A stretch of DNA of 64,000 bases from an uncultured Alphaproteobacteria bacterium (GCA_944389135.1 CALXLG010000003.1:51488-115487); one strand, 5' to 3'. Counted from the stretch's first letter, positions 13,053 through 30,268 are shown. The notes: generated by a model not told the origin, from the letters alone. Translations and numbers: made by a program.

Positions 13053-14144
13053 ATGCCAAAAGTATCTATAATTGTTCCTTGTTATAACGTATCACCATAT
13101 CTGGAAAGATGCCTTGACAGCCTTATCCAACAAAATTTAAAAGATATAGAAATAATTTGCATTGATGATAAATCAACGGATAACACTTTAAAAATTTTGC
13201 ATAAATATGCAAAAATAGATTCAAGAATAAAACTTATAGAATTTGAAAAGAACACAGGTGTTGCAATTGCTAGAAATTCAGGTCTTAGAATTGCAAAAGG
13301 TGAATATATCGGTTTTGTTGACCCAGATGATTATGTTGATTTAGATTTTTATGAAAAGTTATATAATGTTGCGAAATCTAGTAAGGCTGACTTTATAAAA
13401 GGTAATGTAATTTCTGTAAACAATAATACCAAAGACATTTCTATAGACAAAAAAATGGAAAATATAGAAAAGCATATCTCTAATTTTTCTAGCGCATTTT
13501 GGTCTGCTATATATAGAAAAGATTTTTTAGAAAAAAATAAAATTCTTTTTCCCCCGGATATAATAACATCTCAAGACGCTGTTTTTTTAGCCCAAGTCGG
13601 ATTAAAGGCAAAAAAAATTAAACTGGTTTACGATACTTATTATCACTATTTCTATCAAAGACCCGGTTCTTTAGATTCTCAATTCTTGCCTCATGAAAAA
13701 GCGGAATCTAAATATAAAGCATTCTGTATAAACATAAACCTAATAGAAAATTCAAAACTATCCGAAGACGATATGAAATTATTTATAGATACTCATGTCT
13801 TATCACATGTTATATATGAAATCTATAAAGACTTTGAATTAGACAGCGACAGAAAAAAGTTTTTTGATTTATTAGTAAATTTAAATAAAAAATATAATTT
13901 AAAGAGATTCTTAACATTACGTTTAGGTAAAAGAAAGTTCAAAAACGTTTTGTATAATGATTATACTAATTTTAGTTTAGCAAAAAAATCTAGAATTTAT
14001 TTATTTGATTTTATACCAATAATTTTAATAAAAACAATTGGATACAACAAAGAAATTAAATTATTTGATTTCTTACCTATATTGAAAATTTCTTATAACA
14101 AAGTATTTTTATTCAATTTTATTTTAATTCTTAAAATAAGGTAA
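13053..14144 (+). CDS. Family-2 glycosyltransferase
   Basis: The N-terminus VSIIVPCYNVSPYLERCLDSLIQQ...ICIDDKSTD...FVDPDD is a typical GT2 (GT-A) signature. The coding sequence is very AT-rich. Confidence 0.8.
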   Translation: MPKVSIIVPCYNVSPYLERCLDSLIQQNLKDIEIICIDDKSTDNTLKILHKYAKIDSRIKLIEFEKNTGVAIARNSGLRIAKGEYIGFVDPDDYVDLDFYEKLYNVAKSSKADFIKGNVISVNNNTKDISIDKKMENIEKHISNFSSAFWSAIYRKDFLEKNKILFPPDIITSQDAVFLAQVGLKAKKIKLVYDTYYHYFYQRPGSLDSQFLPHEKAESKYKAFCININLIENSKLSEDDMKLFIDTHVLSHVIYEIYKDFELDSDRKKFFDLLVNLNKKYNLKRFLTLRLGKRKFKNVLYNDYTNFSLAKKSRIYLFDFIPIILIKTIGYNKEIKLFDFLPILKISYNKVFLFNFILILKIR

Positions 14145-14148
14145 AAAC

Positions 14149-15594
14149 ATGAAAAGAAAATATGACTATATAATATCTTTAGGTGAAAAATGTTTTATTG
14201 CGCAAACACTACATTTTATAGGAGCTAGAAAATTCTCGTCACCTTTTGATTGGGTTGGAATACATGAATTTACCAAAAACTCCTGCGTTGTTGGCAGAAT
14301 AAATTTAATATTAAATAATTTTAAGAACTTTTTTGATAAAAAAGAAGATTTTATACCACTTTATAATGGAGAATCGTATTTTTTTGTAAATAAAAACACA
14401 GGATTCGCCTTTAGACATGAATTTGTTGACCTTGATGATTTTGATAAAAATTTTGACCTTATAAAAGAAAAGTATGACAGAAGATGTAAAAGATTAATTG
14501 AGATACTTCAATCTAATAAAAAAATTTTATTTGTTTATTCCAGCAGTCTTTTCCCCATAAACGATAAAAAACAAGTAATAGAAGCAATTAATTTATTAAA
14601 CAAAAAATTTAATACAAATAAAATTGATTTATTGATAGTTGAAAGTAACAAAAATTTAAATAGACAAAACAACATTAAATATAAAAAGATAAACTCTAAT
14701 ATAATTTGGGTATCTGGTGTAGATTTATATAAACCAGTTTCAAACAAATCACCAGAATATTATATTAAAACCTTATCTAAAATTATAAAAACAAAGGCAG
14801 AAATTAAACCGGACAATGTTCAAACAATAATATCTTTAACAAGTTTCCCCGCCCGAATAAATAATATTCATATAGTTATAAAATCTTTGTTAAAGCAATC
14901 TGTAAAACCAGATAAAATTGTTCTTTACTTATCAGAACAAGAATTTCCTAAAAAAGAAATTCCTACTAATTTACAAAATCTTATCGGACCTATATTTGAA
15001 GTTAAATTTGTAAAAGAAAACTATAAATCATATAATAAACTAATTTATGCAATTAAAGACTTTCCAAATTCAAATATAGTAACTGTGGACGATGATATTT
15101 TATATCCTAAAAATTTATTATCAACTTTATTAAAAGAGCATAAAAAAAATCCAAAAACTATTTGCGCCCACAGAATAAGGAAAATAAATATACAAAATGA
15201 AGTTATAATGCCTTATAGAACATGGAAACTATTCGAAAAAAGAAGTCTTGTTTCAAAACCACTTAAGCCCGACTTTAAAAATTTCTTCTGTGGCGTTGGT
15301 GGTGTTTTATATCCACCCAGGTCTTTACATCCAGATGTTTTAAACTGCGATAAATTTTTAAAATTATGTGCACACCAAGATGATGTTTGGTTCTGGGCTA
15401 TGGCAGTAAAAAACAACTATAAAATATCTGTAACCCGTTTCGGATATAATCTTTTTAAACGAACGATACAATCTTTACAAGAGGTTGGTTTATGGAATAC
15501 AATAAATAGTAATAATACAGAAAGCCCCAATAATAAAGCAATAGAAGCAGTATTAAAAGAATACCCTGAAATAAGAAAGAAAATAGTGGCATAA
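14149..15594 (+). CDS. Two-domain protein: N-terminal DUF1796-like (papain-fold-like) domain plus a C-terminal glycosyltransferase-like domain
   Basis: The N-terminus ISLGEKCFIAQTLHFIGARKFSSPFDWV resembles DUF1796. The C-terminal half contains VTVDDDILYP (a DxD-type motif). The coding sequence is very AT-rich. Confidence 0.5.
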   Translation: MKRKYDYIISLGEKCFIAQTLHFIGARKFSSPFDWVGIHEFTKNSCVVGRINLILNNFKNFFDKKEDFIPLYNGESYFFVNKNTGFAFRHEFVDLDDFDKNFDLIKEKYDRRCKRLIEILQSNKKILFVYSSSLFPINDKKQVIEAINLLNKKFNTNKIDLLIVESNKNLNRQNNIKYKKINSNIIWVSGVDLYKPVSNKSPEYYIKTLSKIIKTKAEIKPDNVQTIISLTSFPARINNIHIVIKSLLKQSVKPDKIVLYLSEQEFPKKEIPTNLQNLIGPIFEVKFVKENYKSYNKLIYAIKDFPNSNIVTVDDDILYPKNLLSTLLKEHKKNPKTICAHRIRKINIQNEVIMPYRTWKLFEKRSLVSKPLKPDFKNFFCGVGGVLYPPRSLHPDVLNCDKFLKLCAHQDDVWFWAMAVKNNYKISVTRFGYNLFKRTIQSLQEVGLWNTINSNNTESPNNKAIEAVLKEYPEIRKKIVA

Positions 15595-15607: not shown

Positions 15608-16114
15608 TTATGCGGAATACCCATAAACAGACCAATTAACAAATATTTGATTAGTGTTTCCTCCTATATTTCTTACCCCCAATTCTACACTAGAAATACT
15701 TCTTGGACCAGAATTTCCCATTAGTCTTGTATACGAACTGTTACTAAATGGTGTTACTTGAACAGAATAATTTGTATTCAACATATTTAAGCTAAATACG
15801 GCGGTTAAATTCTTTGCGACGCCATCTGCTAAGTTTCCAAAACTTATTGTCCCCCCCTGCTCTACCCAGCCGCTTTTGTACTTGCGGTACCAACTGCTGC
15901 CGTCAGCCGCACGCCAAGTCTCTATAACATAATCTGCTGTATTTATGTCTGATGGTATATCGCTCTTCTTCGCTAATATTGTACCCCCTACTGTCTCGCC
16001 ATCATGAACACGTAACGTTTTGTTCGTCGTGTCCATCGTTATTTCTCCAATCACTCCTGTAAATTCTTCGTGCTCAACAGCACTGCCACGACGTATTTGT
16101 ATCTGTCTGGACAT
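15608..16114 (-). CDS. Phage tail-fibre-like protein (receptor-binding tip)
   Basis: The N-terminus IQIRRGSAVEHEEFTGVIGEITMDTTNKTLRVHDGETVGG matches the common fibre/Mtd-type N-terminal motif. The C-terminal SWYRKYKSGWVEQGG... resembles Gp53-like fibre tips. Confidence 0.7.
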   Translation of the reverse strand: MSRQIQIRRGSAVEHEEFTGVIGEITMDTTNKTLRVHDGETVGGTILAKKSDIPSDINTADYVIETWRAADGSSWYRKYKSGWVEQGGTISFGNLADGVAKNLTAVFSLNMLNTNYSVQVTPFSNSSYTRLMGNSGPRSISSVELGVRNIGGNTNQIFVNWSVYGYSA

Positions 16115-16772: not shown

Positions 16773-17033
16773 TTATTTTATTACCGCTGTCTTAATTAAT
16801 GATACATCGTCTTTGATACCGTCAATTTTTATCTGTAATTGCCCAATACCCGTTTCTAAAATTGTTGTCCTGTTTTCCAGCGTTGTAATTCTATGATCTG
16901 CACGTTCTAATTCCGCCAGTGATGAATCTTGACGTGCAACCCAATATATCATGCCAGCGACAAAGGCGATTAAGAACCAACTATCTCTTAAGAAGTCAAT
17001 AATTCCCATCGCTCCGTTTTGAGTTTGCATCAC
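16773..17033 (-). CDS. Membrane-anchored coiled-coil protein (phage cluster)
   Basis: 86 aa with one TM helix (WFLIAFVAGMIYWV) followed by a heptad-rich tail. It overlaps the upstream ORF by 4 nt. Confidence 0.5.
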   Translation of the reverse strand: MMQTQNGAMGIIDFLRDSWFLIAFVAGMIYWVARQDSSLAELERADHRITTLENRTTILETGIGQLQIKIDGIKDDVSLIKTAVIK

Positions 17034-17221
17034 TTTCCCCGCTGTATCAGAGTTTCAATCTGATGTACAAGAGCTCTTTGTGCTTCTAGACCACGCAATT
17101 CTGAATCACTGGCGTTGGGTCCCAGAACACGCTCTATTGTTATACGCCGCAAATGCGCCAATACTGCTGCACCAGCAGCAGTTGAAAATGTACGCGCATA
17201 ATTTTGTTCAACTTCTTTCAT
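17030..17221 (-). CDS. Small phage-associated protein
   Basis: 63 aa, located immediately downstream of the portal gene. The function was not recognised with certainty. Confidence 0.45.
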   Translation of the reverse strand: MKEVEQNYARTFSTAAGAAVLAHLRRITIERVLGPNASDSELRGLEAQRALVHQIETLIQRGK

Positions 17222-17236: not shown

Positions 17237-18460
17237 TTACAAAACTGTTTCTTCTATGGCCATTTGCGCTATTGGTGCGATATACTTTAATTCCGCATCA
17301 CTATGCAAAGATATTTTTTCTATCACCCCACGACGAGATAAAATCTGTAACCCACGTTCACACAAAGGTCTGATAAATTCATGCAACAGTCTGCCGTATG
17401 TTGCACCAAGTATTCTTACCATATCTGCATTACGTGCCATGATTTCAGTTGCGGTCATTTCTTTTTCAGACAACAAACCAAGTCTATCCGCCAGCAACGC
17501 ATGACGAATACGTTCACGCAAGTCTTTCAATATAATTTGTGATACATCAAAGTCTGCGCCAGAAGATAACGGGGTTAAGCCCGAACTACCTACCGCCTTT
17601 GGTATTATTGCCCCAGGTGTTAAATTAATGTTTGATAAGTTTATAACACCGTCATCATCTGCCTGCCATATACCAGAAACAGCGATTGTTGCGTTTTTTA
17701 ATACTAGTTCTACAACTTTATTTGCGGTCTTGATATCTGGCAAAGCACGCAATACTGGGCCACGTCCGTATAGTTCACCACTGGCAACCGACCAACGAAA
17801 AACTAAGTAAGGGTTCGTTTCAAAAGTACCAGTAGAAATAATATTGTTTTCAATATTTCCACCGACATCCAACCACGCAGTAAAATCTTTACCAACCAAG
17901 CTTTGTACTAATTTCAAAGGCATTTCTGGGTCTTTCTTTATTGCATCACGAATATCTGCAGGTGGTGTCCAAGAAGGATATTTCTCAATAACTTCACGCG
18001 CGGGCATTGAAGTAGTATGAAATATCGCATTCGGTAAAATTGCAATATCTTTCATCGGAATTGCGGTAAAAGAAAATGCGGAATCTGCCCCGATTGGATT
18101 TTCTGACATAAACAGACACGCCGTCCCCAGAATTACTAAATCTAAATAACATTGGTGTATGGTTGTATAGAAATTAGAATCGTTAAGGTTTGCACGTAAT
18201 GCCGCAGTTGCAGAAACAGCATCAGGCGAATCCTCACTTTCAGGTATCAAAGATATCCATAAAGATTCTGGTGGCGTCAACAAAGAATACATTGATGCGG
18301 CTAAATTATCTACGGCATCTGCAGCGGTCGCATCAAACAAAGTTGCGGCATCATCGTCTGCCGTTGGCATGGTATAACGCAATGCACTGTCCCACCTATT
18401 TAACCAAGGTGCACGTAAATCCAGCGCACGACGGTACATTTGTTGTAAATTATTTTGCAT
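17237..18460 (-). CDS. Phage portal (head-to-tail connector)-like protein
   Basis: 407 aa, directly downstream of the terminase nuclease half. Its size, its position and the N-terminal MYRRALDLRAPWLNRWDSALRYTMP resemble podovirus connector proteins. Confidence 0.6.
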   Translation of the reverse strand: MQNNLQQMYRRALDLRAPWLNRWDSALRYTMPTADDDAATLFDATAADAVDNLAASMYSLLTPPESLWISLIPESEDSPDAVSATAALRANLNDSNFYTTIHQCYLDLVILGTACLFMSENPIGADSAFSFTAIPMKDIAILPNAIFHTTSMPAREVIEKYPSWTPPADIRDAIKKDPEMPLKLVQSLVGKDFTAWLDVGGNIENNIISTGTFETNPYLVFRWSVASGELYGRGPVLRALPDIKTANKVVELVLKNATIAVSGIWQADDDGVINLSNINLTPGAIIPKAVGSSGLTPLSSGADFDVSQIILKDLRERIRHALLADRLGLLSEKEMTATEIMARNADMVRILGATYGRLLHEFIRPLCERGLQILSRRGVIEKISLHSDAELKYIAPIAQMAIEETVL

Positions 18461-18481: not shown

Positions 18482-19330
18482 TTATAACTTAAAGTCTGTA
18501 TTCGCTGTAAACGGCCTTATTCCTTGTCCTAATGGCCGCACAGGAATTGGGGTTGTTGCGATGGCACCTGCAACTGCATCTAAACCATCGTCATGACCTG
18601 TTGCGCCAACAGGTGACCAACCCAACATTTCTGATAACAGTGGCGTTGATTGAACACGCCGATGCGCATATAATCGCCCCGTTGTCAAAATAGGTTCTAT
18701 TGTTTCTAAAATTCGGGTTTCTTTTTTTGTGTGATTTAATATTTTTTGAATCTGTACTTGAATACCCCGCTGCTGCGTGATTGTACGCATAATTTCTGGC
18801 AACGCATTACCCATACCATTTGTTTCTATACAAATACGATGTAATAAATGTTTTGATAAGAAATCTAAAACCATCTCGCATTGTCTTGCCAGGGGGTGTG
18901 CTTCTTCGTCTGATACCAACAAGTACTTAACATCATGTATGAAAAAACGTTTGTTTTTATCGTCACGATAAATTAATACGCAAACACTGCCGTCAGCTTT
19001 CTTGCGCCCAGAAGATGGGTCCCAATAGGCTGTAACCCCTGTTATTAAAGCGTCTCCTATTTTAGATGTACGAAAATCAAAATCATTGTCATATAAATGT
19101 AAAGAATCGGGGTCTAAGCGGGCTCTGTCTGGAGCAACGAAATTTAACATCATTTGTGCAGAAAAGTATCTATCGCCAACAGTTGCCCGTAATTCTTCTA
19201 TTTTTTCAATTGGAAAAAGTTCCGGCCAAGCTGGTGCACCGTCTGAATCAATAATTGGTATACGTAATTCTTCATAACCGATTAAAAAAGGCGTTGAAAA
19301 AGCAAAATTTTTATATACTATATCTGACAT
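18482..19330 (-). CDS. Terminase large subunit, C-terminal nuclease half only
   Basis: The product starts MSDIVYKNF. It contains AYWDPSSG, ETNGMGNALPE and GHDDGLDAVAGA, the RNase-H-like terminase nuclease acidic motifs. It has no ATPase motifs. Confidence 0.8.
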   Translation of the reverse strand: MSDIVYKNFAFSTPFLIGYEELRIPIIDSDGAPAWPELFPIEKIEELRATVGDRYFSAQMMLNFVAPDRARLDPDSLHLYDNDFDFRTSKIGDALITGVTAYWDPSSGRKKADGSVCVLIYRDDKNKRFFIHDVKYLLVSDEEAHPLARQCEMVLDFLSKHLLHRICIETNGMGNALPEIMRTITQQRGIQVQIQKILNHTKKETRILETIEPILTTGRLYAHRRVQSTPLLSEMLGWSPVGATGHDDGLDAVAGAIATTPIPVRPLGQGIRPFTANTDFKL

Positions 19331-20882
19331 GGACTTTACTCCCAAAACTTTGCCAACGAACCTAGAAGCAGAACAAGCTGTATTGGCTGCAGTTCTAATG
19401 AACAATCGTGCGTTGGAAAAAGTTTCTGAATTTCTGCGTCCTGAACACTTCTCTCACCCAGCACACCAAGAAATCTATAAGCTTGCTGAAAAGCAATTTT
19501 CTGCCGGAATACCATTTGATATAATTACCGCTAAAAATTACCTTGACCAGCAAGGTGTTTTAGAATCCGTTGGTGGCGTAGATTATTTAACTCAGTTATC
19601 CAGCGCAGGTGCAACAGTTGTTAACGTTGAACAGTATGGACGCATTGTTTATGATAACGCTTTACGTCGTGATTTAATAAATTTAGGTCAATCAATTACT
19701 GATGCTGCATTTATTGAAGATTTAGACAATCCTGTTTCTGCACAAATAGAAACAGCGGAACAAAAATTGTTTGAAATGGCGTCAGCAGGAGTTTCTGAAA
19801 AAGAGGTTTCTTCTATTGCCACAGCTCTGCAAAGCGCACTACAAGAAGCTGAAATTGCCTATAAAGCCGACGGAAAGTTATCTGGTCTTACGACTGGTTT
19901 AACTGCACTTGATAAATCTATTAGTGGTTTGCATCATTCTGACTTAATCATCATTGCAGGTCGTCCAGCAATGGGAAAAACAACACTGGCAATGAATATC
20001 GCTTTTAACGCAGCAAATGCTATTTTATACGGGCGCGCAAACGAAAAGTATAAAGGTGCAGTAGCGTTTTTCAGTCTTGAAATGTCCGCATCTCAGTTAG
20101 CTGCCCGTGTATTGTCTTCACAATCTAAGGTTCCTGCCTCTGCCATGCGTGAAGGAACTTTGACGGATGAAGATTTTCTAAAAATGTCGCAATACTCCGC
20201 AGCTATTGGCAGAGTGCCATTGTATATTGACGATACCCCAGGTATGTCTGTACCAATGATACGAACACGCGCCAGAAGATTGGCTAGGAAATGCGGTGGT
20301 ATCGCTCTTATAGTGATTGACTATTTACAGCTGATGACATCACCTGGTGGCAAGCGAAATGATAACCGCGTTCAAGAAATATCCGAAATTACACGTGGTT
20401 TAAAAATGCTGGCCAAAGAATTAGATGTACCTGTAATAGCCTTGTCCCAGTTATCTCGTAGTGTAGAATCACGCGATGACAAACGACCACAACTGGCCGA
20501 CCTTCGTGAATCTGGTTCTATTGAACAAGACGCAGATATTGTTATGTTTACATACCGCGAAGAATACTATCTTGAGAATCGCGACCCGTCACAAAGAATT
20601 TCTGGTAATGCAAACGAAAAAATCATTGAAAGCTATCAAAAACGTTTGGAACGTGCACGTGGCAAGGCCGATGTTATTATCGGTAAAAACCGACACGGCA
20701 GACCAGAAACTGTTCACTTGGCATTCTTTGGCGATTATAGCTTGTTTGATAACTTGGACGAAATGGAAGGACGCACTGCAGATGAATTCTCAGGTAATAC
20801 AATGCCAACCACCTCTTTACCAACAGATGAAATTCCAGAAGCAATTGACCCTGACGCAATTCCAGACGATATGCCTTTGTAA
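19329..20882 (+). CDS. dnaB: Replicative DNA helicase DnaB
   Basis: Contains NLEAEQAVLAAVLMNN, the Walker A motif GRPAMGKTTLA, IDYLQLM and an acidic C-tail. Its ATG overlaps the opposite-strand TerL-C ATG in the palindrome CATG. Confidence 0.9.
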   Translation: MDFTPKTLPTNLEAEQAVLAAVLMNNRALEKVSEFLRPEHFSHPAHQEIYKLAEKQFSAGIPFDIITAKNYLDQQGVLESVGGVDYLTQLSSAGATVVNVEQYGRIVYDNALRRDLINLGQSITDAAFIEDLDNPVSAQIETAEQKLFEMASAGVSEKEVSSIATALQSALQEAEIAYKADGKLSGLTTGLTALDKSISGLHHSDLIIIAGRPAMGKTTLAMNIAFNAANAILYGRANEKYKGAVAFFSLEMSASQLAARVLSSQSKVPASAMREGTLTDEDFLKMSQYSAAIGRVPLYIDDTPGMSVPMIRTRARRLARKCGGIALIVIDYLQLMTSPGGKRNDNRVQEISEITRGLKMLAKELDVPVIALSQLSRSVESRDDKRPQLADLRESGSIEQDADIVMFTYREEYYLENRDPSQRISGNANEKIIESYQKRLERARGKADVIIGKNRHGRPETVHLAFFGDYSLFDNLDEMEGRTADEFSGNTMPTTSLPTDEIPEAIDPDAIPDDMPL

Positions 20883-20949
20883 TATTTTGTGCTTGCTAAA
20901 CTCCTAAAAATTGACTAATATTTTGTCAAGTAATTCAAGGAGATTTGCG

Positions 20950-21954
20950 ATGGCCCAAGAAGAAATAATTTTTCCTAATAACATCAGAAACATTCGTCTT
21001 GCCAATGGTATGAAAATGACTGAATTGGCGCGTCAGGCAAATTTATCTTTGTCTGCTGTTTCAAAAATTGAAAAAGGCGTACGTCGCTTAAATCAAAAGC
21101 AACTATTAAACATCTGTAATATTTTGGGTTGCAAATTATCCGATATCTTTATAAAAGAATCAGATGCTGTTGCAACACAATGGCAAGATGAAATCAAACG
21201 CCGTATGAGCGACAATGAAAACAATGGCTTAAAAATATTTGGCAGTGGGTTACGCAAAATACGTCAGCAAGCAGGTAAAACTATCGCCCAGGCGGCAAAA
21301 GAAGCCGGTATGACATTGTCCGTTTATCATAAAATTGAGGTCGGACAACGTGAAATTTACCAAGATGAAATTGAACCTTTGGCAAAATCATTTGCTTATA
21401 CAACATCTGAATTATTTGATAAAGTTGCAAATCTTTATAAATCTGGCGAACTTAATAAGCAAATTAATAAGGTTAAAGAGCGCGTAAAATCTGTACTAGT
21501 TCCGGACAACCCTTTATCTGGTATTGATCACAGCAGTTTATACGGTGCAAAGCTTTATGATAGCGCCAGAAAAAAATTAGTACCTGTATTTGGCATGCCA
21601 GAAGGTAAAGCCATAGCATTTAAGAAATCTGATGAAACAATGATTGTTGCACCAATGATGCTAGAAGGCAAAAAAGGTATTTATGCTGTAATACCGAACT
21701 CAAAACGTACTAACGGTTTTATTCCTGAAAAAGCGTATGTTTTTGCTGATTCGTGTGCGACTGTAAATACTGGTGATTTAGCAATCTGTATTGATGCAGA
21801 TTTTGATACTTTGGGCACAGAAGATAAAGCAACAGCTCAAATTGTTAGCGTTCGCCAAGATTCTAAGGGTAAAACATACGGTCAAATTTCTTCTCCGGAA
21901 GAAAAAATTATCGGCAAAACATTACACAAAGTTGTAATGATTGTTATGGAATAA
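20950..21954 (+). CDS. Transcriptional regulator with two XRE-type HTH domains and a CI/LexA-like C-terminal domain (no obvious catalytic Ser-Lys)
   Basis: Two segments of the type IRNIRLANGMKMTELARQANLSLSAVSKIEKG and LRKIRQQAGKTIAQAAKEAGMTLSVYHKIEVG are present. The RBS is aaggag. Confidence 0.7.
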   Translation: MAQEEIIFPNNIRNIRLANGMKMTELARQANLSLSAVSKIEKGVRRLNQKQLLNICNILGCKLSDIFIKESDAVATQWQDEIKRRMSDNENNGLKIFGSGLRKIRQQAGKTIAQAAKEAGMTLSVYHKIEVGQREIYQDEIEPLAKSFAYTTSELFDKVANLYKSGELNKQINKVKERVKSVLVPDNPLSGIDHSSLYGAKLYDSARKKLVPVFGMPEGKAIAFKKSDETMIVAPMMLEGKKGIYAVIPNSKRTNGFIPEKAYVFADSCATVNTGDLAICIDADFDTLGTEDKATAQIVSVRQDSKGKTYGQISSPEEKIIGKTLHKVVMIVME

Positions 21955-21981
21955 TAATTCATATTGCCTAGGGGGGACAAC

Positions 21982-22647
21982 ATGAAAGCGAAAGCCAGTT
22001 TAATTGCACAAAAACTTCTTAACTTATATCGTCAAGAGCATGTAATTTTTGGTGGTTGGGCCGCTGTTAATGAAGTATTCGTAAATGAAGCAACCCCTGA
22101 GGTAATAACCGAATTGCGCGAATTGCCAACAGGAAAATTATTAGCAAAACATATAGAAAATCTTCGCAGTGGCAAAACACCTATGAATTCTATTGAACGC
22201 GACCTACTTCCTTATGGTGGTATGATGGCAGAAACAATTGCAACAATTCCGTTAACGACAGAAGAATGGGCGGAATTAGAACAAGGCATACATAATTTCA
22301 CCCCTGATGAAAACGGTCTAAACGAAATACAACAGTTAAATGTTATCAAAAAGTTTGGCGATCAGTGGTTAGTTGCAATACGTGCAGCAATATCGGCAAA
22401 ACCAGAATTATTGGAAAAATGGTCAGTCATTGCAAAAACATACCGCGCATACTATTTATGGAAAGTGGCAAGCGATATGATTAACCAACCACTTACGGAA
22501 CGCGCACGTGCTCAATTACAAGCAGATATGCCAGAATATGAAACATACCTGCCTATGTTTGGCGAAGCGGGCGTAGAATTGTTAGAAAAATTACGTTCTT
22601 TCATAACCACAATGAAATCGGACAAAGAAGAAAATATTTCTGACTAA
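21982..22647 (+). CDS. Hypothetical protein
   Basis: 221 aa with the RBS gggggg and no recognised motif. It is the last gene of the insert that splits the terminase. Confidence 0.5.
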   Translation: MKAKASLIAQKLLNLYRQEHVIFGGWAAVNEVFVNEATPEVITELRELPTGKLLAKHIENLRSGKTPMNSIERDLLPYGGMMAETIATIPLTTEEWAELEQGIHNFTPDENGLNEIQQLNVIKKFGDQWLVAIRAAISAKPELLEKWSVIAKTYRAYYLWKVASDMINQPLTERARAQLQADMPEYETYLPMFGEAGVELLEKLRSFITTMKSDKEENISD

Positions 22648-23261
22648 CTTTCTGATTTAGTTCTATAAATAGTATCCATCGTATGTGGTGTGCCAATATA
22701 TATCATTGTGCCGGTGGGTGAAAGAATAAAATCAAGCTCTCGTAATTTCTCTCGTAATGTTTCTCGCTTTTGTGCGGTGTTGCAAGTATTTGGGACTTCG
22801 ACGTCATCGCATATAATCAAGTCTGCTCGCATACCTGTAATATTTCCATGAACTCCTTGGCATATTACAGATGGTTCGCGAATTCCAACAGGTCGGTTAA
22901 CAGTTATGCGTCCTTGGGCCCATTCTTTTTTCGCGCTTGGAATTAGCTCTTTACACAGCGGATGATTTTCTAGAATATGCCGAATATGTGCAACCATTCT
23001 AGAAGCCAGCCCGCTTTCAGCAGACAAAATTAAAATTCTTGTTTCTGGATGCAAATATAAAACACATGCAGCGAATATTCCAACCACTGTAGACTTACCT
23101 GAATGTCGGAAAGACATTAACAAACCGCGCTTATTTTTGCCTGTCCATATTGAAACAAGAAAATCCATAATTTTTTTATGATGCGTGGGAGTTTTAAATC
23201 CAAGAATCTCGTTCCAATCATCTAAGAAATTATAGAACTCCGTAATCATCACGTGTTTCAT
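22644..23261 (-). CDS. Terminase large subunit, N-terminal ATPase half only
   Basis: It has Walker A (SFRHSGKST) and Walker B (DLIICDDVE) motifs and the coupling motif IGTP. It stops right after ...MDTIYRTKSES. Confidence 0.8.
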   Translation of the reverse strand: MKHVMITEFYNFLDDWNEILGFKTPTHHKKIMDFLVSIWTGKNKRGLLMSFRHSGKSTVVGIFAACVLYLHPETRILILSAESGLASRMVAHIRHILENHPLCKELIPSAKKEWAQGRITVNRPVGIREPSVICQGVHGNITGMRADLIICDDVEVPNTCNTAQKRETLREKLRELDFILSPTGTMIYIGTPHTMDTIYRTKSES

Positions 23262-23778
23262 TTGGCGCCTGCTCTGTTATGCTGCCATAATCATTTATTA
23301 AATTTGGCAAAGCATTATCTAATACCGATAATAAGTTATTATAAAGCCCTAAAACACTGCCACCAGATAATTTATCTTCTATTAGCTTGACCGTATAATC
23401 TATAAAAGATAATACTTTATCATGTACGTTTGCCCACTCTGAAACATTTATATCTATGTTTTGCAGGTCTTTAAAAGCCTCTAATAAAAAATTAAAATCG
23501 GCGTTTAGTGCTTCGGGGTCTATCTTTGCGGTTGGTTGATAATCAACAACACGCGACAAAGCAATTTGTCTAAAAATATCCACTTTTGTGTTTTCTGCTG
23601 GTGGATTTATAAAAATAACTGTTCCACCAGAAAAATCTTCGTTCGCAACAATGGAACATTCGCCGTTCAAACAAAGCTTATCATCTAGCGCAACACGAAT
23701 GTCTGCTTCTTGAAAAAAAGGAAACGCAAATAAGAACTCTGACGTTACCCCATCAGCAATATAAGAGTTTCTGTACAT
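23230..23778 (-). CDS. T7-type tail-fibre N-terminal (tail-attachment) domain protein
   Basis: The N-terminal YIADGVTSEFLFAFPFFQEADIRVALDD matches the pattern of the podovirus fibre N-terminal domain. At 182 aa it has no long shaft. Confidence 0.6.
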   Translation of the reverse strand: MYRNSYIADGVTSEFLFAFPFFQEADIRVALDDKLCLNGECSIVANEDFSGGTVIFINPPAENTKVDIFRQIALSRVVDYQPTAKIDPEALNADFNFLLEAFKDLQNIDINVSEWANVHDKVLSFIDYTVKLIEDKLSGGSVLGLYNNLLSVLDNALPNLINDYGSITEQAPNETRDDYGVL

Positions 23779-23791
23779 TCCTGCCCCCTTA

Positions 23792-24139
23792 TTAACCGAC
23801 TAAATCATCAAATTTATCCAACAAAGACTGTAATAAGTTTGGTTTTTGTACTTTTATCTTCTTTAACTTTTCAGTTTTAGTACGCTTTTTTTCTTCGTAT
23901 GGTTCGGCCGCTTCTTCTTTTAATCGCTTTAGGACTGCCCCTTCGGTCATGCCTTTACCTGACATACCAGACGCACCATATTTAGCACGTTGCGTGGCTA
24001 ATGTTTTTTTTACTAAATTTGTTTTTTCTTTTTCATCAGCTGCCATATCAGACAGTATCTTCTGTCTTTCTGTTTCGGCTTCTTTTTTTGAATCTTTATA
24101 ATTTAAAATATCTGTTACATCTGAAACTATCTGCCCCAT
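23792..24139 (-). CDS. Lys/Glu-rich small virion-associated-like protein
   Basis: 115 aa, highly charged, located between the tubular-B-like and fibre-N genes. Confidence 0.4.
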   Translation of the reverse strand: MGQIVSDVTDILNYKDSKKEAETERQKILSDMAADEKEKTNLVKKTLATQRAKYGASGMSGKGMTEGAVLKRLKEEAAEPYEEKKRTKTEKLKKIKVQKPNLLQSLLDKFDDLVG

Positions 24140-24155
24140 TTTTTTCTCCCTATGT

Positions 24156-25871
24156 TTAAACTAGGTAATATCCATACATTGTTATCGATAAAACCGTTGT
24201 TGGTAATTGTTCACTGCTTGAAATTGTCCAAGGTGCCGTTATGCAATTCCTTTGGCACCCAAGTAAATTTATTGAAACGTCACCACTATAACCATTGGTA
24301 TCATCTGCGAATATTTCGTTTGGAAAATCTGCTCTGGCCCCGTTTATAAATAAAGACTTTGTATTAAGAACACGTGCAGAAATTTTACGAACTTTTATTT
24401 TATTTGCATTATGACCGGACGCTCTTAAAGGTAAAGCTGAGGCGGTATAAGAAAAGCCATACTTATCCGCATCAATTAACACATCGTCTGAAAATTTTTC
24501 TAGCGAATATTTGCCTTCTCGTAAAACCACGACATATGTATCACCGCTACTTACCGCAACAGATTGAAAATTACCTTGAGTTTTATAAGTTGCCCACGCA
24601 GAAATACCAAGTGCGGAATTTTGATTCAAAACCGCCATATCACCAGATTCCATTACAACAAAAAGCTGTCTTGTTTTATCGTTGTATGCTAAATCTATAG
24701 GATTCTGCATTAAATGCTTTGACAATCCACATAAATCTGTCGCATTATAATTTTCACCAAGCTGGTCTAAACTTAATTCACGAATATCTTTTTTACTGCC
24801 AGATATAAAAACTGTCGCACCTTCAATTTTTTGTGGTGGCAAGTAACGTGTTGCTACACTGCCTACAGATGTGTGCTGCTTTATGTCCACAACAGACGGA
24901 GTTAAGGGCTTACTTGAAATTGCCCATTCACCAGCAGATGTAAGTATTTGTAAATTATCGCTACTTACAACAGTACATATCTGTTGACGTTGTTGTGATA
25001 GTAAAGTTATAAAAATTGCTTCATCATCTAAGCCGGTTCCAACATTAAAATTATTATGCCGACCGACCTGCGATAGCCAGACACCACTTGGCCAAGAACG
25101 TGAACCACCAAAAACTAATCTGTCTTGATGAAATGTGATACTGCAAGGCCAGCCTCTGCGTTTACTAAATGCCGCTTCGCGCCAATCAGAAACGGGTTCT
25201 GCCGGTACAGTATACGTACCATTCACATAAGCTTTTACTACTTTCGCACTTATATATTCAGAAATAAGCCATTGCTTACCTAGCAATAAAAAACGACCGT
25301 CTTTATCGTCAGGTGTCCAATAATCAACGTTTGTCGTAAACGTTGCAAAATTATTTCCAGAATCACTTGCAGTAACGGTTATTTTAATGTCTTCTGTATC
25401 ATCAAAACGCATAAACGGTATATTTACAGTCATATCCGAATCGTTACGCGCAAAATCAAACTTTGATAACTCAAAATCATTCCCAACTTTTTTCAGTGTA
25501 TAAGGCTGAAAATCTGGATGCACAAAAATCATCGTACCAAAGCGTTGCGCATATTGAAGTTTTGCTAAATCGTTAAAGCTCCATGGACTTATCAAGTCTT
25601 TTATTCTTTGCCCGTCAAAGTAAATCAATATATGCTGATTAATTAATACCAATAAATAATTTTCTGTTTCACTTACTGAAAAATCTATTAATCTTGCATT
25701 ATCAGACAGGCTTGCAACACTTTTTAGTCCACGTCTGCGAGATAAACCACCGCCTGCAAGAACGTCCATATTTTCTAACTTTGAAAGTCCATTGGTATTA
25801 TCACGTGCAAAAAATTCAGGTGCAACTTCGCCATCTGCAAAAGAATTCTGTGTTTTTATAAAATCTCCCAT
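24156..25871 (-). CDS. Tail tubular protein B (nozzle)-like protein
   Basis: 571 aa. The call rests on its position after the adaptor-like gene and its large beta-rich sequence, i.e. mainly on synteny with T7-like order. Confidence 0.5.
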   Translation of the reverse strand: MGDFIKTQNSFADGEVAPEFFARDNTNGLSKLENMDVLAGGGLSRRRGLKSVASLSDNARLIDFSVSETENYLLVLINQHILIYFDGQRIKDLISPWSFNDLAKLQYAQRFGTMIFVHPDFQPYTLKKVGNDFELSKFDFARNDSDMTVNIPFMRFDDTEDIKITVTASDSGNNFATFTTNVDYWTPDDKDGRFLLLGKQWLISEYISAKVVKAYVNGTYTVPAEPVSDWREAAFSKRRGWPCSITFHQDRLVFGGSRSWPSGVWLSQVGRHNNFNVGTGLDDEAIFITLLSQQRQQICTVVSSDNLQILTSAGEWAISSKPLTPSVVDIKQHTSVGSVATRYLPPQKIEGATVFISGSKKDIRELSLDQLGENYNATDLCGLSKHLMQNPIDLAYNDKTRQLFVVMESGDMAVLNQNSALGISAWATYKTQGNFQSVAVSSGDTYVVVLREGKYSLEKFSDDVLIDADKYGFSYTASALPLRASGHNANKIKVRKISARVLNTKSLFINGARADFPNEIFADDTNGYSGDVSINLLGCQRNCITAPWTISSSEQLPTTVLSITMYGYYLV

Positions 25872-25887
25872 ACCGACTACCCCCAGA

Positions 25888-26406
25888 TTAAAAACGCGCG
25901 TTGATTAAAGAAAAACTTTCTATGTCTTGATTGATTGACGTTGTACTGTCTATAAATTTCGCAGATTGCATTTCTGTTTCATATAAAGCGGCAAGCATTC
26001 TAAATACACTTTGCTCGCCAATAAGTGGTATACAAAATTCCATTGCTAACTTAGTCGCAGCCAGTGAAACAAAATAACTAGGGAAGTTTTCAACAGGAAC
26101 CTTTGTTATCGCCAAAATAGAAATCTTTTCTTCTGCAGAAATAATTTTATTTCCGATAATTTCCCCATTGCATTTCAAAACACGCAAACAATCAATTGGT
26201 ATTAAAAAGTCTCCGTCCGATGTTTTTGTAAGCTCATATTTTTTACATGCAAAGCGCCACGGATGCGAAGACAGCAAGGTATCTATTACTGGGTCAAACA
26301 AAGTCCTACTAAGTTGCGCAGCCGGTGTATCATCTACAAGAGACTGAATAGATTTCTCGCCCAGCTTTAATAACGCCATAGAACATAAATCTATTTTCGT
26401 AATCAT
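25888..26406 (-). CDS. Tail tubular protein A / adaptor-like protein
   Basis: The N-terminus IDLCSMALLKLGEKSIQSLVDDTPAAQLSRTLFDPVIDTLLSSHPWRFA follows the N-terminal pattern I associate with podovirus gp11-like adaptors. Confidence 0.55.
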   Translation of the reverse strand: MITKIDLCSMALLKLGEKSIQSLVDDTPAAQLSRTLFDPVIDTLLSSHPWRFACKKYELTKTSDGDFLIPIDCLRVLKCNGEIIGNKIISAEEKISILAITKVPVENFPSYFVSLAATKLAMEFCIPLIGEQSVFRMLAALYETEMQSAKFIDSTTSINQDIESFSLINARF

Positions 26407-26462
26407 ATTATGCCCCTTATTGCTAAAAATAAAGGCGACATAAAAATGTCGCCTTGGTTTTA

Positions 26463-26690
26463 TTATGCTAAATCAGCAACACTAACATTGCCAGAAACAG
26501 CAACTTTTTTAATAGAAGTATTATCAGACGCATTTATGATTACGATATCACCTGTATTCATTAACGTCTTTACACCATCAAAATAACCAGCCGTTGTAAT
26601 CGCTGTTAACGTTTCGTTTGCAGAATAATGCCACAAAGTAAAACCATTGGCATATGCAATAACAGATAAATTTTTATTCTGAAAAGCCAT
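26463..26690 (-). CDS. Small phage structural-cluster protein
   Basis: 75 aa, directly downstream of the capsid gene, which makes a decoration or cement role possible. Confidence 0.4.
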   Translation of the reverse strand: MAFQNKNLSVIAYANGFTLWHYSANETLTAITTAGYFDGVKTLMNTGDIVIINASDNTSIKKVAVSGNVSVADLA

Positions 26691-26723: not shown

Positions 26724-27545
26724 TTATTGATTGTCCAAGCATTTAACACGTACAATGCCATCATTATCAATCAATACTGCACCTTGTGACATGCTGTTGC
26801 TGATAAAGTGCGCAGCACGTTCACCATGCCAAGAAATATCTGTTTTAACTTCTTGACCGCATGCATGACCAACGCTGGTTGCGTGATAAATAAAGCAATC
26901 ACGGTTATCTTCTGTTAAAGGCAAGCCGTTATGCAAAACCCAAGTAATACCTAACCATTTCTTAGAAGCACCACCTGATACCAACGGCAAATCATTACCT
27001 ACGTAATCTGCAGAAACAAATTCGTCCATTGACAACAGTTCATTCCATTGATGAACACCAACAACAGCAAATCTACGACCGTCATCAGGAACATCTTTTT
27101 CATTTAATGCCTCTACTGCAGATAAAATCAAATCTTTTGTAAGACCAGTGCTATAATCACCAACAGAGTTTGTTGCTTTGCTCATTGCAGAGATAATTAA
27201 TTCATCAGTTTTACGCCCAAGCGCATATGCACCAGCAGATGCAACTACACGACGTTCATCAACGTTTGTCTTTAATTCATCCAATGCATCAACCCAATCA
27301 CCTGCATAATAATCTTGCAATATACATTCAACAGGTTCATGGTTTAAGTTCATAACAGGAACTATCCCATGACGAGATTTTGTACTGGCCGTACCACGAC
27401 CAACTTTTTGGAAAGTTGTTGAAGCACCAACAACACCGGACTTACTACGAACAGTTGCACGTAGTTTTGTCCCCATTTGCTGATACGCCAAATGTACATC
27501 GGCTTCGAATTGTTTCACGAAGACCTGATCTATGGAAACAGACAT
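26724..27545 (-). CDS. Major capsid protein-like
   Basis: 273 aa. The N-terminus VFVKQFEADVHLAYQQMGTKLRATVR is a pattern I recall from podovirus capsid families. The gene follows the scaffold gene. Confidence 0.6.
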   Translation of the reverse strand: MSVSIDQVFVKQFEADVHLAYQQMGTKLRATVRSKSGVVGASTTFQKVGRGTASTKSRHGIVPVMNLNHEPVECILQDYYAGDWVDALDELKTNVDERRVVASAGAYALGRKTDELIISAMSKATNSVGDYSTGLTKDLILSAVEALNEKDVPDDGRRFAVVGVHQWNELLSMDEFVSADYVGNDLPLVSGGASKKWLGITWVLHNGLPLTEDNRDCFIYHATSVGHACGQEVKTDISWHGERAAHFISNSMSQGAVLIDNDGIVRVKCLDNQ

Positions 27546-27788
27546 ATATTATTCCTTTTTATAATCAAGTGAATTTAATGCGTATAAATAACGCGGCTAA
27601 AATTTTGTATCATGGTTATGCGCTTTAACGCGCCAATATACAAAATACCAAGGTCCTAAAAAGGATTGTCTTGAGAAATTCTTAGTCATACTAAACAAAA
27701 ACATATGACTAAAAATTTCAAAAAATAAAACCGCATAAAAATGCGGCTGTATAGAAAAAGTAAATCCCCGCAATTGCGAGGATTTATA

Positions 27789-28082
27789 TTATTTTTTCTT
27801 TGCACATGCTTTCTTAGCAACTGGTTTTTTTACAGCTACTTTTTTTGCACATACTTTTTTTGCTGCTGGTTTCGCTGCTACTTTTTTTACAGCTACTTTC
27901 TTTGCAACTGGTTTTTTTGCAACAACTTTTTTTGCAGCTGGTTTTGCAGCTACTTTCTTTGCAGCTGGCTTTGCAGCTGGTTTCTTTGCAGCTGGTTTAG
28001 CTGCTGCTTTTTTTGCAACCGGTTTTGCAGCTGGTTTTGCAGCTGGTTTCTTTGCGGCTGGCTTCAAGAATGAAAATGCCAT
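27789..28082 (-). CDS. Lys/Ala-rich histone-H1-like (AKKPAAKPAAK repeat) basic protein
   Basis: The ATG at 28082 follows the RBS aggaga. About 85 aa consist of (A/V)AKKPAAKP-type repeats. The gene has its own flanking terminators at 27741-27788. Confidence 0.7.
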   Translation of the reverse strand: MAFSFLKPAAKKPAAKPAAKPVAKKAAAKPAAKKPAAKPAAKKVAAKPAAKKVVAKKPVAKKVAVKKVAAKPAAKKVCAKKVAVKKPVAKKACAKKK

Positions 28083-28185
28083 TCTTCTCTCCTTTTTATT
28101 TTTTGGATAGAACAAATTTGTTTTGTTCTTACTTTATATTTTATATGAAACAAAAATATTAGTAAAGAAGAAAGTGCATTTTTTT

Positions 28186-28842
28186 CTATGAATATAATTT
28201 TTTAAAACCATTTTCTATCTTTCTAACATACTCTGGATCTTGGTCGCGCCAATATTTTGGATCTTGCATCATGCGTCTTAAATCATTATCTGTTAAATTT
28301 TTTGATGCGAAATCATCTGTACGAACACTTGGTTCCATTGATTGCATCATTTTGTAGACACCTTGAATTCCCTGGGCTGTAGAACACAACTCTTCAAAAG
28401 CATTTGCAGGTAAATATTTTTCACCAAATGATTTTATTGCATGCAATGCTTCATTCATTTTTTCTTCACCACCAAAAAAATTTTTTAATTCCATAATTTC
28501 TTTATTTTCATTTTGCACATTAAATAAATCTGAAATTATTGGTGATAAATAATCTTCTGCAAGTTTATAAATTTTTTCAACCTGCGAAGATGTTAAACCA
28601 ATTTCAAAAAATTTATTACGCAAATCTTCATCATCAAACATCGGATTTGCAGGATATGCATCTGCGCTTTCTGGGACACCAATTGCGCGATAAAATTTTG
28701 TGCGTGTTTCTTTGTCTGCATCATCAGCAGGTACAGAAATCATCGTTCCAATCTTTTTTTCTAATTCAGAATAAGATTTTAATAATGCATTTGTATTTAA
28801 AGTTCCGTCTTCATTTAGAAATTTTTCTGGAATTTTTTCCAT
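28186..28842 (-). CDS. Phage scaffolding (capsid assembly) protein-like
   Basis: The product starts MEKIPEKFLNEDGTLNTNALLKSYSELEKKIG, a typical scaffold N-terminus, and is acidic and helical. The longer track ORF has an implausible hydrophobic extension. Confidence 0.55.
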   Translation of the reverse strand: MEKIPEKFLNEDGTLNTNALLKSYSELEKKIGTMISVPADDADKETRTKFYRAIGVPESADAYPANPMFDDEDLRNKFFEIGLTSSQVEKIYKLAEDYLSPIISDLFNVQNENKEIMELKNFFGGEEKMNEALHAIKSFGEKYLPANAFEELCSTAQGIQGVYKMMQSMEPSVRTDDFASKNLTDNDLRRMMQDPKYWRDQDPEYVRKIENGFKKLYS

Positions 28843-29032
28843 TTCGTCTTCCTTTTGTTTCGCTTGATTTACGCAGAAAATAAATTCCGCCCAAAGTAAA
28901 GATTGCTTGCAACATTGTAAATATATCTGTGTCACCAACCAGATATGCACCAATAGCAGATAATATACCAACACCTGATATTATATAAGTTCTATGACCT
29001 GCTAAAAAACCACCTTTGATAATTTTATTCAT
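28811..29032 (-). CDS. Holin-like small membrane protein
   Basis: 73 aa with two TM segments and a basic C-tail. It lies immediately downstream of the cell-wall hydrolase gene. Confidence 0.5.
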   Translation of the reverse strand: MNKIIKGGFLAGHRTYIISGVGILSAIGAYLVGDTDIFTMLQAIFTLGGIYFLRKSSETKGRRNGKNSRKISK

Positions 29033-29041
29033 CTCAAAATC

Positions 29042-29443
29042 CTATGCATAAAAAAGCAAACCGTCTATATCGGCAACATATCCAATTGATTGCGCCCATA
29101 TCGGCATTTCTTCTGCATGATGAAAACGTGTGGCACCATTACAAGCATCAATTAAACCACCTTTTATCATTCTGCTTACTACACGCAAGCACATTTGAAA
29201 ACCACGACTATTTATATCTATGTCTGCAATTTTTTCTTTATTTCTTAATGCTGGAAATATATCTGCATCGTTTGCAATGTCTTCAAAAGTTCTACCACTA
29301 CGACAAGATATATTTTTTATCATTGATGTAATAGCTTCTACTGCAGGCAAAGATATAGCACGTGTTTCTGAATAAACAACGCGCGCAATTTTATATGTTA
29401 TTCTTTTATTTTCATCTGTGTTTTTTATCAGTTCCAATTGCAT
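29042..29443 (-). CDS. SleB-type cell wall hydrolase (endolysin-like)
   Basis: The sequence IARVVYSETRA...NGATRFHH...W...IG..LFY follows the Hydrolase_2 (SleB) pattern. Confidence 0.65.
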   Translation of the reverse strand: MQLELIKNTDENKRITYKIARVVYSETRAISLPAVEAITSMIKNISCRSGRTFEDIANDADIFPALRNKEKIADIDINSRGFQMCLRVVSRMIKGGLIDACNGATRFHHAEEMPIWAQSIGYVADIDGLLFYA

Positions 29444-29602
29444 CTGACGCCGACCTTTATTTTTGAAAAATAAAAAGCCGCACAAAATGTGCGGCTTAAA
29501 AAAAATCCGTAAAACTTTACGGACACAATCTTTACTGTTTATGTTTTATATAATATCATATTTTACATATTAAGTCAAGTTTTTTATTTTGTTAGTGGCT
29601 TT

Positions 29603-30268
29603 TTATAAAGATATTTCATCACCATATGTTAAAAAATACTCTGCACCTTTTCTTAATATCAAAGCACCGTTTTCATTGATACCAATTAAATCTACTGTAT
29701 CACCACGATATTTTACTTTGCCTTTTAACCCAGTTGCCAAGTCCATCCAACGCGCCCGAACATCTGCAAAATCTTTTTTACGCCATTTATCTAAATTATT
29801 CATCAGTCTTTTTAACACATCAGATTTTTCAACTTTTATATAATTATCCAATTTTGTGGTTTGATAATCTTGAACAGTCGGATTAGATTTAATGTTAATT
29901 CCAATACCAACAACAACATAATTTCCAGAATATTCTGTCAAAGTACCAGATACCTTTTTGTTATCTATTAATATATCATTAGGCCACTTTATTGTCGGTT
30001 TTATTCCAAAACTAATTAAAGTTTCCGCAATTGCGACTGCAACGGTATAAGAAAGTTTTGGGTCGCGCTCTTCTATCTCATAAATAAAGCTGACATATAA
30101 ATTACCATGATGCGAAACCCATTTACGTTTATATCTGCCACGTCCTGCACTTTGTGCTTCTGCCATAACCGCGACATGATCACCTGCCCGCCCACTTGCA
30201 ATTAAGTCCAATGCATATGTCTGGGTACTGGGTATTTTATCAAAAGAAATTAATTTATAGTTTGCCAA
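29603..30268 (-). CDS. birA: Biotin--[acetyl-CoA-carboxylase] ligase, group I (no N-terminal HTH)
   Basis: Contains the motif QSAGRGRYKRKW (GRGRxGRxW). The only start that retains the N-terminal STQ region is the TTG at 30268. Confidence 0.85.
   Translation of the reverse strand: MANYKLISFDKIPSTQTYALDLIASGRAGDHVAVMAEAQSAGRGRYKRKWVSHHGNLYVSFIYEIEERDPKLSYTVAVAIAETLISFGIKPTIKWPNDILIDNKKVSGTLTEYSGNYVVVGIGINIKSNPTVQDYQTTKLDNYIKVEKSDVLKRLMNNLDKWRKKDFADVRARWMDLATGLKGKVKYRGDTVDLIGINENGALILRKGAEYFLTYGDEISL

Follow-up and report, generated by a model that had tools for sequence, protein, structure and literature searches.

The main finding of this study is that a 64,000-nucleotide stretch of chromosomal DNA (the window) from Candidatus Enterousia, a gut alphaproteobacterium of the order Rs-D84, carries what is predicted to be one complete large terminase (TerL) in the form of two uninterrupted open reading frames (ORFs) on the minus strand, separated by a three-gene cassette on the plus strand that begins with dnaB. 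All five ORFs have the coordinates and strands reported in the initial annotation of this DNA: TerL-C at 18482-19330 and TerL-N at 22644-23261 and, between them, dnaB at 19329-20882, a double helix-turn-helix (HTH) regulator at 20911-21954 and a gene for a 227-residue protein (unk227) at 21964-22647. Among the proteins of tailed viruses, none is more conserved than the large terminase, which is treated as a single-chain, two-domain motor. The finding is more unusual than the initial annotation supposed; the arrangement is genus-wide and lies inside a domesticated podovirus cluster resembling a gene transfer agent (GTA). We consider it probable, from sequence comparison, that the locus is a domesticated podovirus cluster of GTA-like character, whose terminase is obligately two-chain and interlocked with dnaB. 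Literature searches brought up no terminase with this kind of split and no account of phage or GTA genes in Enterousia.

Taken together, the two halves are predicted to constitute one complete T7-type large terminase. TerL-N, with 205 amino acids (aa), contains the first three quarters of the ATPase domain, including Walker A, Walker B and motif III (GTPH), and ends in a short acidic tail after DTIYRT; TerL-C has 282 aa counted from a conserved ATG, and family matches of its own. The NCBIfam model NF033889 (termin_lrg_T7) is matched by TerL-N at 230 bits (cutoff 150) over positions 1-192 of 500 and by TerL-C at 110 bits over positions 224-500, and only both halves combined cover it. In the PHROG 38 profile, TerL-N accounts for positions 272-459 and TerL-C for positions 469-706, and TerL-N also aligns with residues 30-212 of the T7 gp19 model and with the solved PhiV-1 TerL (entry 8dgc). 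The concatenate of 487 aa, a length that had been equated with one TerL from the start, aligns in one piece with intact T7-like TerLs (796 phage records, at most 28% identity), and an exhaustive search of representative proteins placed its nearest intact relatives at 480-505 aa and 45-51% identity. Loss of essential TerL segments, which the initial annotation had raised as a sign of ordinary decay or rearrangement, was not found: when the halves were aligned to five of the nearest intact homologues, no conserved segment was lost at the junction. The break point is a short variable loop between GTPHT..TIY (motif III) and PFL.GF..L.IP..D..G.S.WPE. All residues that are invariant in 76 intact homologues are retained, and the motifs kept in the concatenate are GKST (55-58), CDDxE (151-155), GTPH (190-193), WDP (308-310) and DDxxD (452-456). 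Where a T7-type TerL is a single polypeptide, every relative of this locus has two ORFs, of which TerL-N keeps its stop codon, behind a variable acidic tail, and TerL-C keeps its start.

The description of the halves as an ATPase ORF and a nuclease ORF, made in the initial annotation, is inexact, because both the structural model and the Terminase_6C match put the end of the ATPase domain in TerL-C. Since the RNase-H-like nuclease domain (Terminase_6C) begins only at about residue 100 of TerL-C, after 13 N-terminal residues, the last ATPase β-strand and the lid helices, the cut is modelled to run inside the ATPase domain, with TerL-C carrying its final strand and lid helices. The model was obtained with AlphaFold2 for the N and C halves concatenated as one chain, using an alignment of the 76 intact homologues, and reached a mean predicted local distance difference test score (pLDDT) of 90.1 and a predicted template modelling score of 0.76. 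Its sole weak internal stretch, residues 201-220, is the junction loop; the strand at 180-189 (motif III) belongs to TerL-N, and the strand at 225-229 and the helices at 246-265 belong to TerL-C, ahead of the nuclease fold. A single-sequence model with a pLDDT of 34 was discarded in favour of this alignment-based one. The best Foldseek matches of the model were full-length terminases, with the PhiV-1/T7 type on top (E = 7e-28), followed by T4 gp17, D6E, Sf6 and HK97, and the 250-residue ATPase domain of P74-26 aligned over ~275 columns.

Another important finding is how widely and how faithfully this arrangement is kept. A scan of one genome per GTDB species yielded 80 loci, all from Enterousia or from metagenome-assembled genomes (MAGs) of gut Alphaproteobacteria from chicken, human and ruminants, one of them a circular 958,618-bp long-read genome; related genomes were compared over ~20 kb each. 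The same split and the same cassette are present in 80 of 80 of these loci, wherever the locus extends far enough. The conserved order is p139, LplA, endolysin, scaffold, capsid, p75, p172, nozzle, p115, (fibre) and TerL-N, then unk227, HTH regulator and DnaB on the opposite strand, then TerL-C, portal, Bbp19 and p86. The capsid-tail-TerL-N / unk227-HTH-DnaB / TerL-C-portal order was likewise found in loci L001-L005, and the split arrangement in ~35 IMG/VR contigs. The best 120 homologues of TerL-N are all ~200 aa long and 75-92% identical, one of them bearing the name Candidatus Enterousia avicola, and no fused terL occurs in ~120 assemblies. The G+C content of the cassette does not differ from that of its flanks. 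Judging from this distribution, the split arrangement is ancient and fixed across the whole genus.

Both terminase halves are, by estimates of selection, under purifying selection. Synonymous sites are saturated (proportion of synonymous differences ~0.70-0.74), with non-synonymous differences of 0.085-0.26 (0.14 for TerL-N and 0.26 for TerL-C), and ratios of non-synonymous to synonymous substitution rates (dN/dS), taken from pairs with dS < 1.5, are rough given this saturation, the contrast being clear nonetheless. Median identity to the window and dN/dS are 79% and 0.10 for TerL-N and 62% and 0.16 for TerL-C, compared with 88% and 0.07 for the capsid, 84% and 0.06 for DnaB (the most constrained gene of the region by dN/dS), 83% and 0.07 for the portal, 80% and 0.08 for the HTH regulator, 67% and 0.125 for LplA and 61% and 0.21 for unk227; structural genes as a class range from 0.07 to 0.18. 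These values bear directly on the idea that the locus is an ordinary decaying prophage in which terL was destroyed by a rearrangement, leaving two functionless remnant ORFs. An interrupted terminase, the many phage genes absent from the cluster and the further deletions seen in one relative (locus L062, described below) would all fit such decay. However, all other species sampled have both ORFs uninterrupted despite saturated synonymous sites, all catalytic residues are kept at dN/dS values of 0.10 and 0.16, and capsid and portal are conserved as well as DnaB, so that the relatives display conservation and not the frameshifted decay that the initial annotation had envisaged as the ordinary outcome. 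Moreover, pseudogene accumulation is not seen in these genomes of less than 1 Mb (PMC12306168). Because of the purifying selection and the retained invariant residues, we regard a decaying remnant as ruled out, to within a very small residual probability.

The gene that separates the two halves is predicted to be cellular, in agreement with the initial annotation. DnaB, a 517-aa replicative helicase of the cellular alphaproteobacterial type with both Pfam domains (DnaB and DnaB_C), scores 618.6 bits against the alphaproteobacterial replicative-helicase equivalog NF006606 (cutoff 540) and 509 bits against TIGR00665 (cutoff 385), whereas its score of 408 against the phage_DnaB model is under the cutoff of 499. 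Its best matches among solved structures are bacterial DnaBs, and the best phage DnaBs are 44-50% identical. No second dnaB-sized gene was found among the window ORFs of at least 110 aa, the family search covering this locus neighbourhood only. The gene is probably essential. The second cassette gene encodes two Cro/CI-type HTH domains followed by a C-terminal domain without family assignment, and its true start is probably the ATG at 20950. The last, unk227, is present at all related loci and has no match in Pfam, PHROGs, NCBIfam, PADLOC or PDB that would indicate a function.

The cassette is joined to the terminase halves without a spacer at either junction. The overlap of the dnaB and TerL-C start codons as CATG, spotted in the initial annotation, is kept in 69 of 71 related genomes; at the other end, the stop codons of TerL-N and unk227 overlap by 4 nt (CTAA) in the window and in 44 of 78 loci in all, with a range of -84 to +10. 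Upstream of dnaB, the DNA that also encodes the first 13 codons of TerL-C reads GGCG-TTGAAA-AAGCAAAATTTTTATA-TACTAT and is near-invariant across ~70 species, variation in the -10 box being limited to TAnnAT. This pattern match and near-invariance predict a plus-strand dnaB promoter at 19286-19321, inside TerL-C codons 4-15, with a -35 box TTGAAA (19294-19299), a 16-nt spacer and a -10 box TACTAT (19316-19321) that ends 7 nt before the dnaB ATG in the window. Over TerL-C codons ~5-15, synonymous-codon entropy drops to 0.08, whereas the mean for the gene is 1.28; among eight genes scanned no trough is deeper, and the second deepest (0.43) is at the TerL-N start, where the fibre gene overlaps. 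Opposite-strand constraint is limited to TerL-C codons ~5-15 and does not run along the whole length of both ORFs. We conclude that a predicted dnaB promoter is embedded in the TerL-C coding sequence. The same stretch is part of a feature that had been put forward as a weak hint of a junction duplication, namely the resemblance of MDTIYR at the end of TerL-N to SDIVYK at the start of TerL-C (11 of 16 bases): 27% of shuffles reach such a match, and the TerL-C codons concerned are the -10 box of the dnaB promoter.

Conversely, TerL-C is predicted to have its own translation start, with signals lying inside dnaB. A Shine-Dalgarno-like GGGAG for TerL-C is found on the minus strand at 19338-19343, antisense to dnaB codons Thr4-Pro5. 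For Thr4, 72 of 72 genomes use ACC or ACT, while ACA and ACG make up 60% of the other Thr codons, and Pro5 is CCC in 51% of cases compared to 11% elsewhere, a codon choice that holds an antisense GG[A/G]G 8-9 nt ahead of the TerL-C ATG. Since this motif is held at synonymous dnaB sites and the TerL-C ATG is conserved, TerL-C would be translated separately. The first 13-21 residues of TerL-C seem not to be of terL origin but to stem from the strand antisense to the dnaB promoter and leader. In roughly one half of the genomes, that of the window among them, 7 nt separate the -10 box from the dnaB ATG, a short distance that suggests a leaderless dnaB mRNA in genomes of this type. The other half (L019, L023, L025 and others) have a 24-nt insertion at the site corresponding to window 19305-19331, which adds an AAGGA Shine-Dalgarno for dnaB and eight N-terminal residues (MSNSFFGS) to TerL-C. 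With a dnaB promoter in TerL-C and a TerL-C ribosome-binding site in dnaB, the two units would therefore be physically interlocked. An ORF continuing upstream of the TerL-C ATG was rejected as a candidate; it is due to DnaB codon content, and its conservation mirrors that of the DnaB N terminus on the other strand. Separately, the longest inverted repeat in the region (22438-22463 and 22661-22686; 26 nt, 81% complementary) has its arms inside the unk227 gene and in the last TerL-N codons (HTMDTIYR), and may be due to chance in AT-rich DNA.

These junctions also weigh on two ways in which an uninterrupted terminase might be restored. In one, site-specific excision of the 3.3-kb cassette, or its rearrangement, would rebuild an intact terL in a particle-making subpopulation, like skin in sigK. 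GTA producer cells lyse anyway, which could make loss of dnaB tolerable, and the halves abut exactly. However, the cassette is not flanked by direct or inverted repeats, the conserved block lacks a recombinase, and the 11/16 match is at chance level. A fusion would need neither a separate TerL-C ATG nor a Shine-Dalgarno, yet both are conserved, as is the TerL-N stop after its variable tail, and none of the ~120 assemblies has the fused gene. The insert, in addition, carries a probably essential gene and is interlocked at its junctions by the start overlap and the embedded promoter. An excisable insert, as contemplated in the initial annotation, is thus highly improbable. In the other, the halves would be joined by intron splicing, trans-splicing or a split intein, and here there are suggestive precedents. 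Herpesvirus UL15 has two exons separated by a 3.5-kb intron that holds UL16 and UL17 on the opposite strand (PMC3079670), and like the Enterousia locus it combines a two-piece ATPase-nuclease gene, opposite-strand genes in between and a layout kept across the lineage; it is the closest architectural parallel. Similarly, terL in Jug jumbo phages is divided by group I introns into two or three ORFs that make one enzyme (PMC12880540). However, UL15 yields one polypeptide by spliceosomal splicing, whereas the Enterousia pieces have their own start or stop and no splicing signal, and inserts in intron- or intein-bearing terL genes are same-strand group I introns, homing endonucleases or inteins that are spliced out, whereas the Enterousia insert is an opposite-strand cellular operon that stays. 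Rfam, at gathering and permissive thresholds, gave neither a group I or group II intron nor any other structured RNA, there are no spare residues for intein halves because the ends align directly onto the loop of intact TerLs, and the intervening DNA consists of three conserved protein-coding genes on the opposite strand. We therefore give next to no credence to splicing.

The surroundings of the split terminase, a set of phage-derived genes all on the minus strand, are also instructive. A T7-type portal (Head-tail_con; 17237-18460) lies 21 nt downstream of TerL-C and is followed by a Bbp19-like protein (17030-17221) and a conserved 86-aa protein, p86 (16773-17033), which form the distal end of the conserved cluster. 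On the TerL-N side, a tail module (23230-26690) encodes proteins of 75 aa, 172 aa (tail-tube-A-like), 571 aa (nozzle-like), 115 aa (Lys/Glu-rich) and 182 aa, two of them corresponding to PHROG 394 and PHROG 376; the 182-aa protein has a tail-fibre N-terminal domain and its gene overlaps the TerL-N start by 32 nt. It is preceded by a head and lysis module (26724-29485) with an endolysin-like protein (29042-29485), a T7-type scaffold (Phage_T7_Capsid; 28186-28974), an AKP-repeat ORF (27789-28115) and the major capsid protein (Phage_capsid_2; 26724-27545). The proximal end of the conserved block (29603-31006) comprises a cellular lipoate-protein ligase, LplA (29603-30268), p139 (30255-30674), a conserved 139-aa protein whose C terminus looks winged-helix-like by eye, and a conserved 81-aa protein (30761-31006) that looks like a Cro/CI-type HTH by eye; neither of these two small proteins has a match in family libraries, and both are candidate regulators of the cluster. 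Cellular LplA, DnaB and YraN are thus interleaved with phage-derived genes. Protein-family searches found no phage replication, integration or lysogeny genes in the cluster. The capsid is closest, among cultured phages, to that of a 34-kb Pelagibacter podovirus (45% identity), and the IMG/VR relatives in which TerL is intact measure 10-18 kb. LplA, the AKP-repeat ORF and p75 are each followed by a strong hairpin terminator, and none of this kind was found on the minus strand from p172 to p86.

By its gene content, this cluster would be a compact, domesticated, podovirus-derived head, tail, packaging and lysis set. GTAs are chromosomal, vertically inherited clusters of ~10-15 kb under purifying selection (PMC9662315, PMC12946183). 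The Enterousia cluster has a phage-derived gene set without replication, integration and lysogeny modules, and shows vertical inheritance and purifying selection, with the same order in 80 species and identities on par with DnaB. Because gene set, size, fixed position and selection all fit, we assign it as a GTA-like element and infer particle production and gene transfer. It has in common with RcGTA-type elements (Rhodogtaviriformidae), BaGTA (Bartogtaviriformidae) and FpGTA the terminase, portal, scaffold, capsid, tail and lysis genes and the lack of replication and integration modules. Like BaGTA, it has a physical link to a replication function. The proteins of these GTAs, by contrast, appear unrelated in sequence to those of the cluster. 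RcGTA is of the HK97 siphovirus type, and BaGTA has genes of different sizes (TerL 447 aa, portal 620 aa, capsid 372 aa). Identity with BaGTA, which was compared by description, was rejected on account of these sizes and because the nearest TerLs in cultured phages are T7-like (at most 28% identity), unlike the reported phage relatives of the BaGTA TerL. FpGTA is podovirus-like but stems from Firmicutes (Faecalibacterium), and a 10.5-kb podovirus-like GTA-like operon has been shown to be active in gut Faecalibacterium (PMC12946183). In none of RcGTA, BaGTA and FpGTA is terL split or an essential cellular gene nested in it. Small podoviruses of Pelagibacter and Vibrio (32-35 kb) have TerL, portal, scaffold, capsid and nozzle proteins homologous to those of the cluster, the 45% capsid match being to Pelagibacter phage EXVC031P, but they are complete viruses, in which terL is intact and early/replication genes are present.

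Closer homologues exist in Alphaproteobacteria MAGs, where three ~11-kb clusters (L087 8862-19446, L172 8841-19649 and L173 8743-19277) have an intact TerL. Compared with the Enterousia cluster, their capsid is 63%, their portal 44% and their TerL ~40-50% identical. Their order is TerL, endolysin, a weak GTA_holin_3TM match, portal, Bbp19, scaffold, capsid, tail tube and nozzle, with an S24/CI-like gene upstream on the other strand and no dnaB cassette. They share one chromosomal site, with housekeeping genes on its flanks (PBP1A, release factor, hydrolase, YhdP), and the TerLs of L172 and L173 are each 57-59% identical to that of L087. On the strength of these sequence features, they look like an undescribed family of podovirus-derived GTA-like elements.

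A different possibility is that the split terminase works but that the cluster is a helper-mobilised defective phage or satellite, or a particle for killing or for delivery to partner cells. This would be in line with the lack of recognisable small terminase and ejection proteins and with the variability of receptor-binding genes (the Mtd_N fibre, and the ORFs between p86 and YraN in L001 and L003). It would also suit the biology of the host, since order Rs-D84 genomes are below 1 Mb and Enterousia is predicted to depend on partner cells (PMC12306168). However, gene order is kept in all species with cellular genes interleaved, contrary to what is expected of a mobile satellite, and a terminase, a portal and an endolysin point to DNA-filled particles released by lysis. 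We consider such alternatives to be on the whole unlikely, and the GTA-like element with a two-chain terminase to be the better description of the locus.

Several observations nonetheless count against that description. First, no small terminase (TerS) and no internal core (ejection) proteins were recognised in the cluster, and the particle may be incomplete or work differently. Second, the AlphaFold2 model, built as one chain, speaks to the completeness of the fold and not to two-chain assembly. Third, TerL-C has diverged ~1.8 times as much as TerL-N, compared to 1.4 times in intact homologues, although in intact terminases too the C-terminal part evolves faster (56% versus 68% pairwise identity). 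Fourth, no synonymous-site footprint of a conserved TerL-C promoter was seen in dnaB codons 1-120. Finally, in locus L062 (JAZLBQ010000007.1, 9641-14336; compared with L063), capsid, tail, portal and most of TerL-C are gone. One deletion runs from capsid residue 69 to fibre residue 112 and another from TerL-C residue 89 to Bbp19 residue 15, taking out the portal, while the dnaB cassette, TerL-N and the first 89 TerL-C codons, with the dnaB promoter, are retained and a near-identical relative is intact. These deletions represent either an assembly artefact or a natural loss, in which case the element would be dispensable in L062 at least.

Some features of the neighbourhood deserve mention in their own right. 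The AKP-repeat ORF encodes 108 aa with AKKPAAKPAA-type repeats and a weak histone H1-like HC2 match; it lies between the scaffold and capsid genes, flanked by strong terminator hairpins, and an ORF of similar size is found there in relatives. Its product could condense DNA, either in the particle or in the cell. LplA in all relatives sits between the putative regulators and the endolysin, and is thus a second host gene inside the element. Beyond p86, a 168-aa protein with an Mtd_N tropism-determinant N-terminal domain is encoded at 15608-16114 (minus), and the adjoining 13053-15594 (plus) is an island of glycosyltransferase-like genes with 23-27% G+C. The region from p86 to the Mtd_N fibre gene varies among relatives, which suggests that surface glycan genes and receptor-binding genes change together.

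How could such an arrangement have arisen, and what might it do? A cellular cassette (dnaB and its promoter, the double-HTH gene and the gene now seen as unk227) would have lodged in reverse inside terL in the ancestor of the genus, at a variable surface loop just past ATPase motif III. Since then, terL would have been expressed as two polypeptides, TerL-N stopping at the cassette and TerL-C having recruited its start and Shine-Dalgarno from the strand opposite the start and promoter of dnaB. The two chains would assemble non-covalently into one ATPase-nuclease motor, to which TerL-C would contribute the last β-strand and the lid. The TerL-C/portal transcript would have to run antisense through the dnaB promoter and, with that promoter inside TerL-C and no strong minus-strand terminator from tail to portal, late transcription would therefore be expected to collide with expression of dnaB and the HTH gene, so that late-gene and dnaB expression may interfere with each other. 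It is conceivable, though we think it rather doubtful, that the nesting is a regulatory device, a bistable and self-reinforcing switch, rather than a frozen accident. If so, commitment to particles would shut off chromosome replication and the putative repressor, and active dnaB transcription would keep terminase and portal off.

If the proposed explanation is true, Enterousia would offer a natural, lineage-wide ATPase core built from two separately translated chains, which bears on how terminase motors fold and how their domains communicate. It would also be a rare case of a probably essential cellular gene that is physically interlocked with virus-derived genes. Finally, some of the smallest genomes among gut bacteria would turn out to hold a podovirus-derived GTA-like element, and the retention of ~10 kb of virus genes in genomes so small would imply a real benefit.

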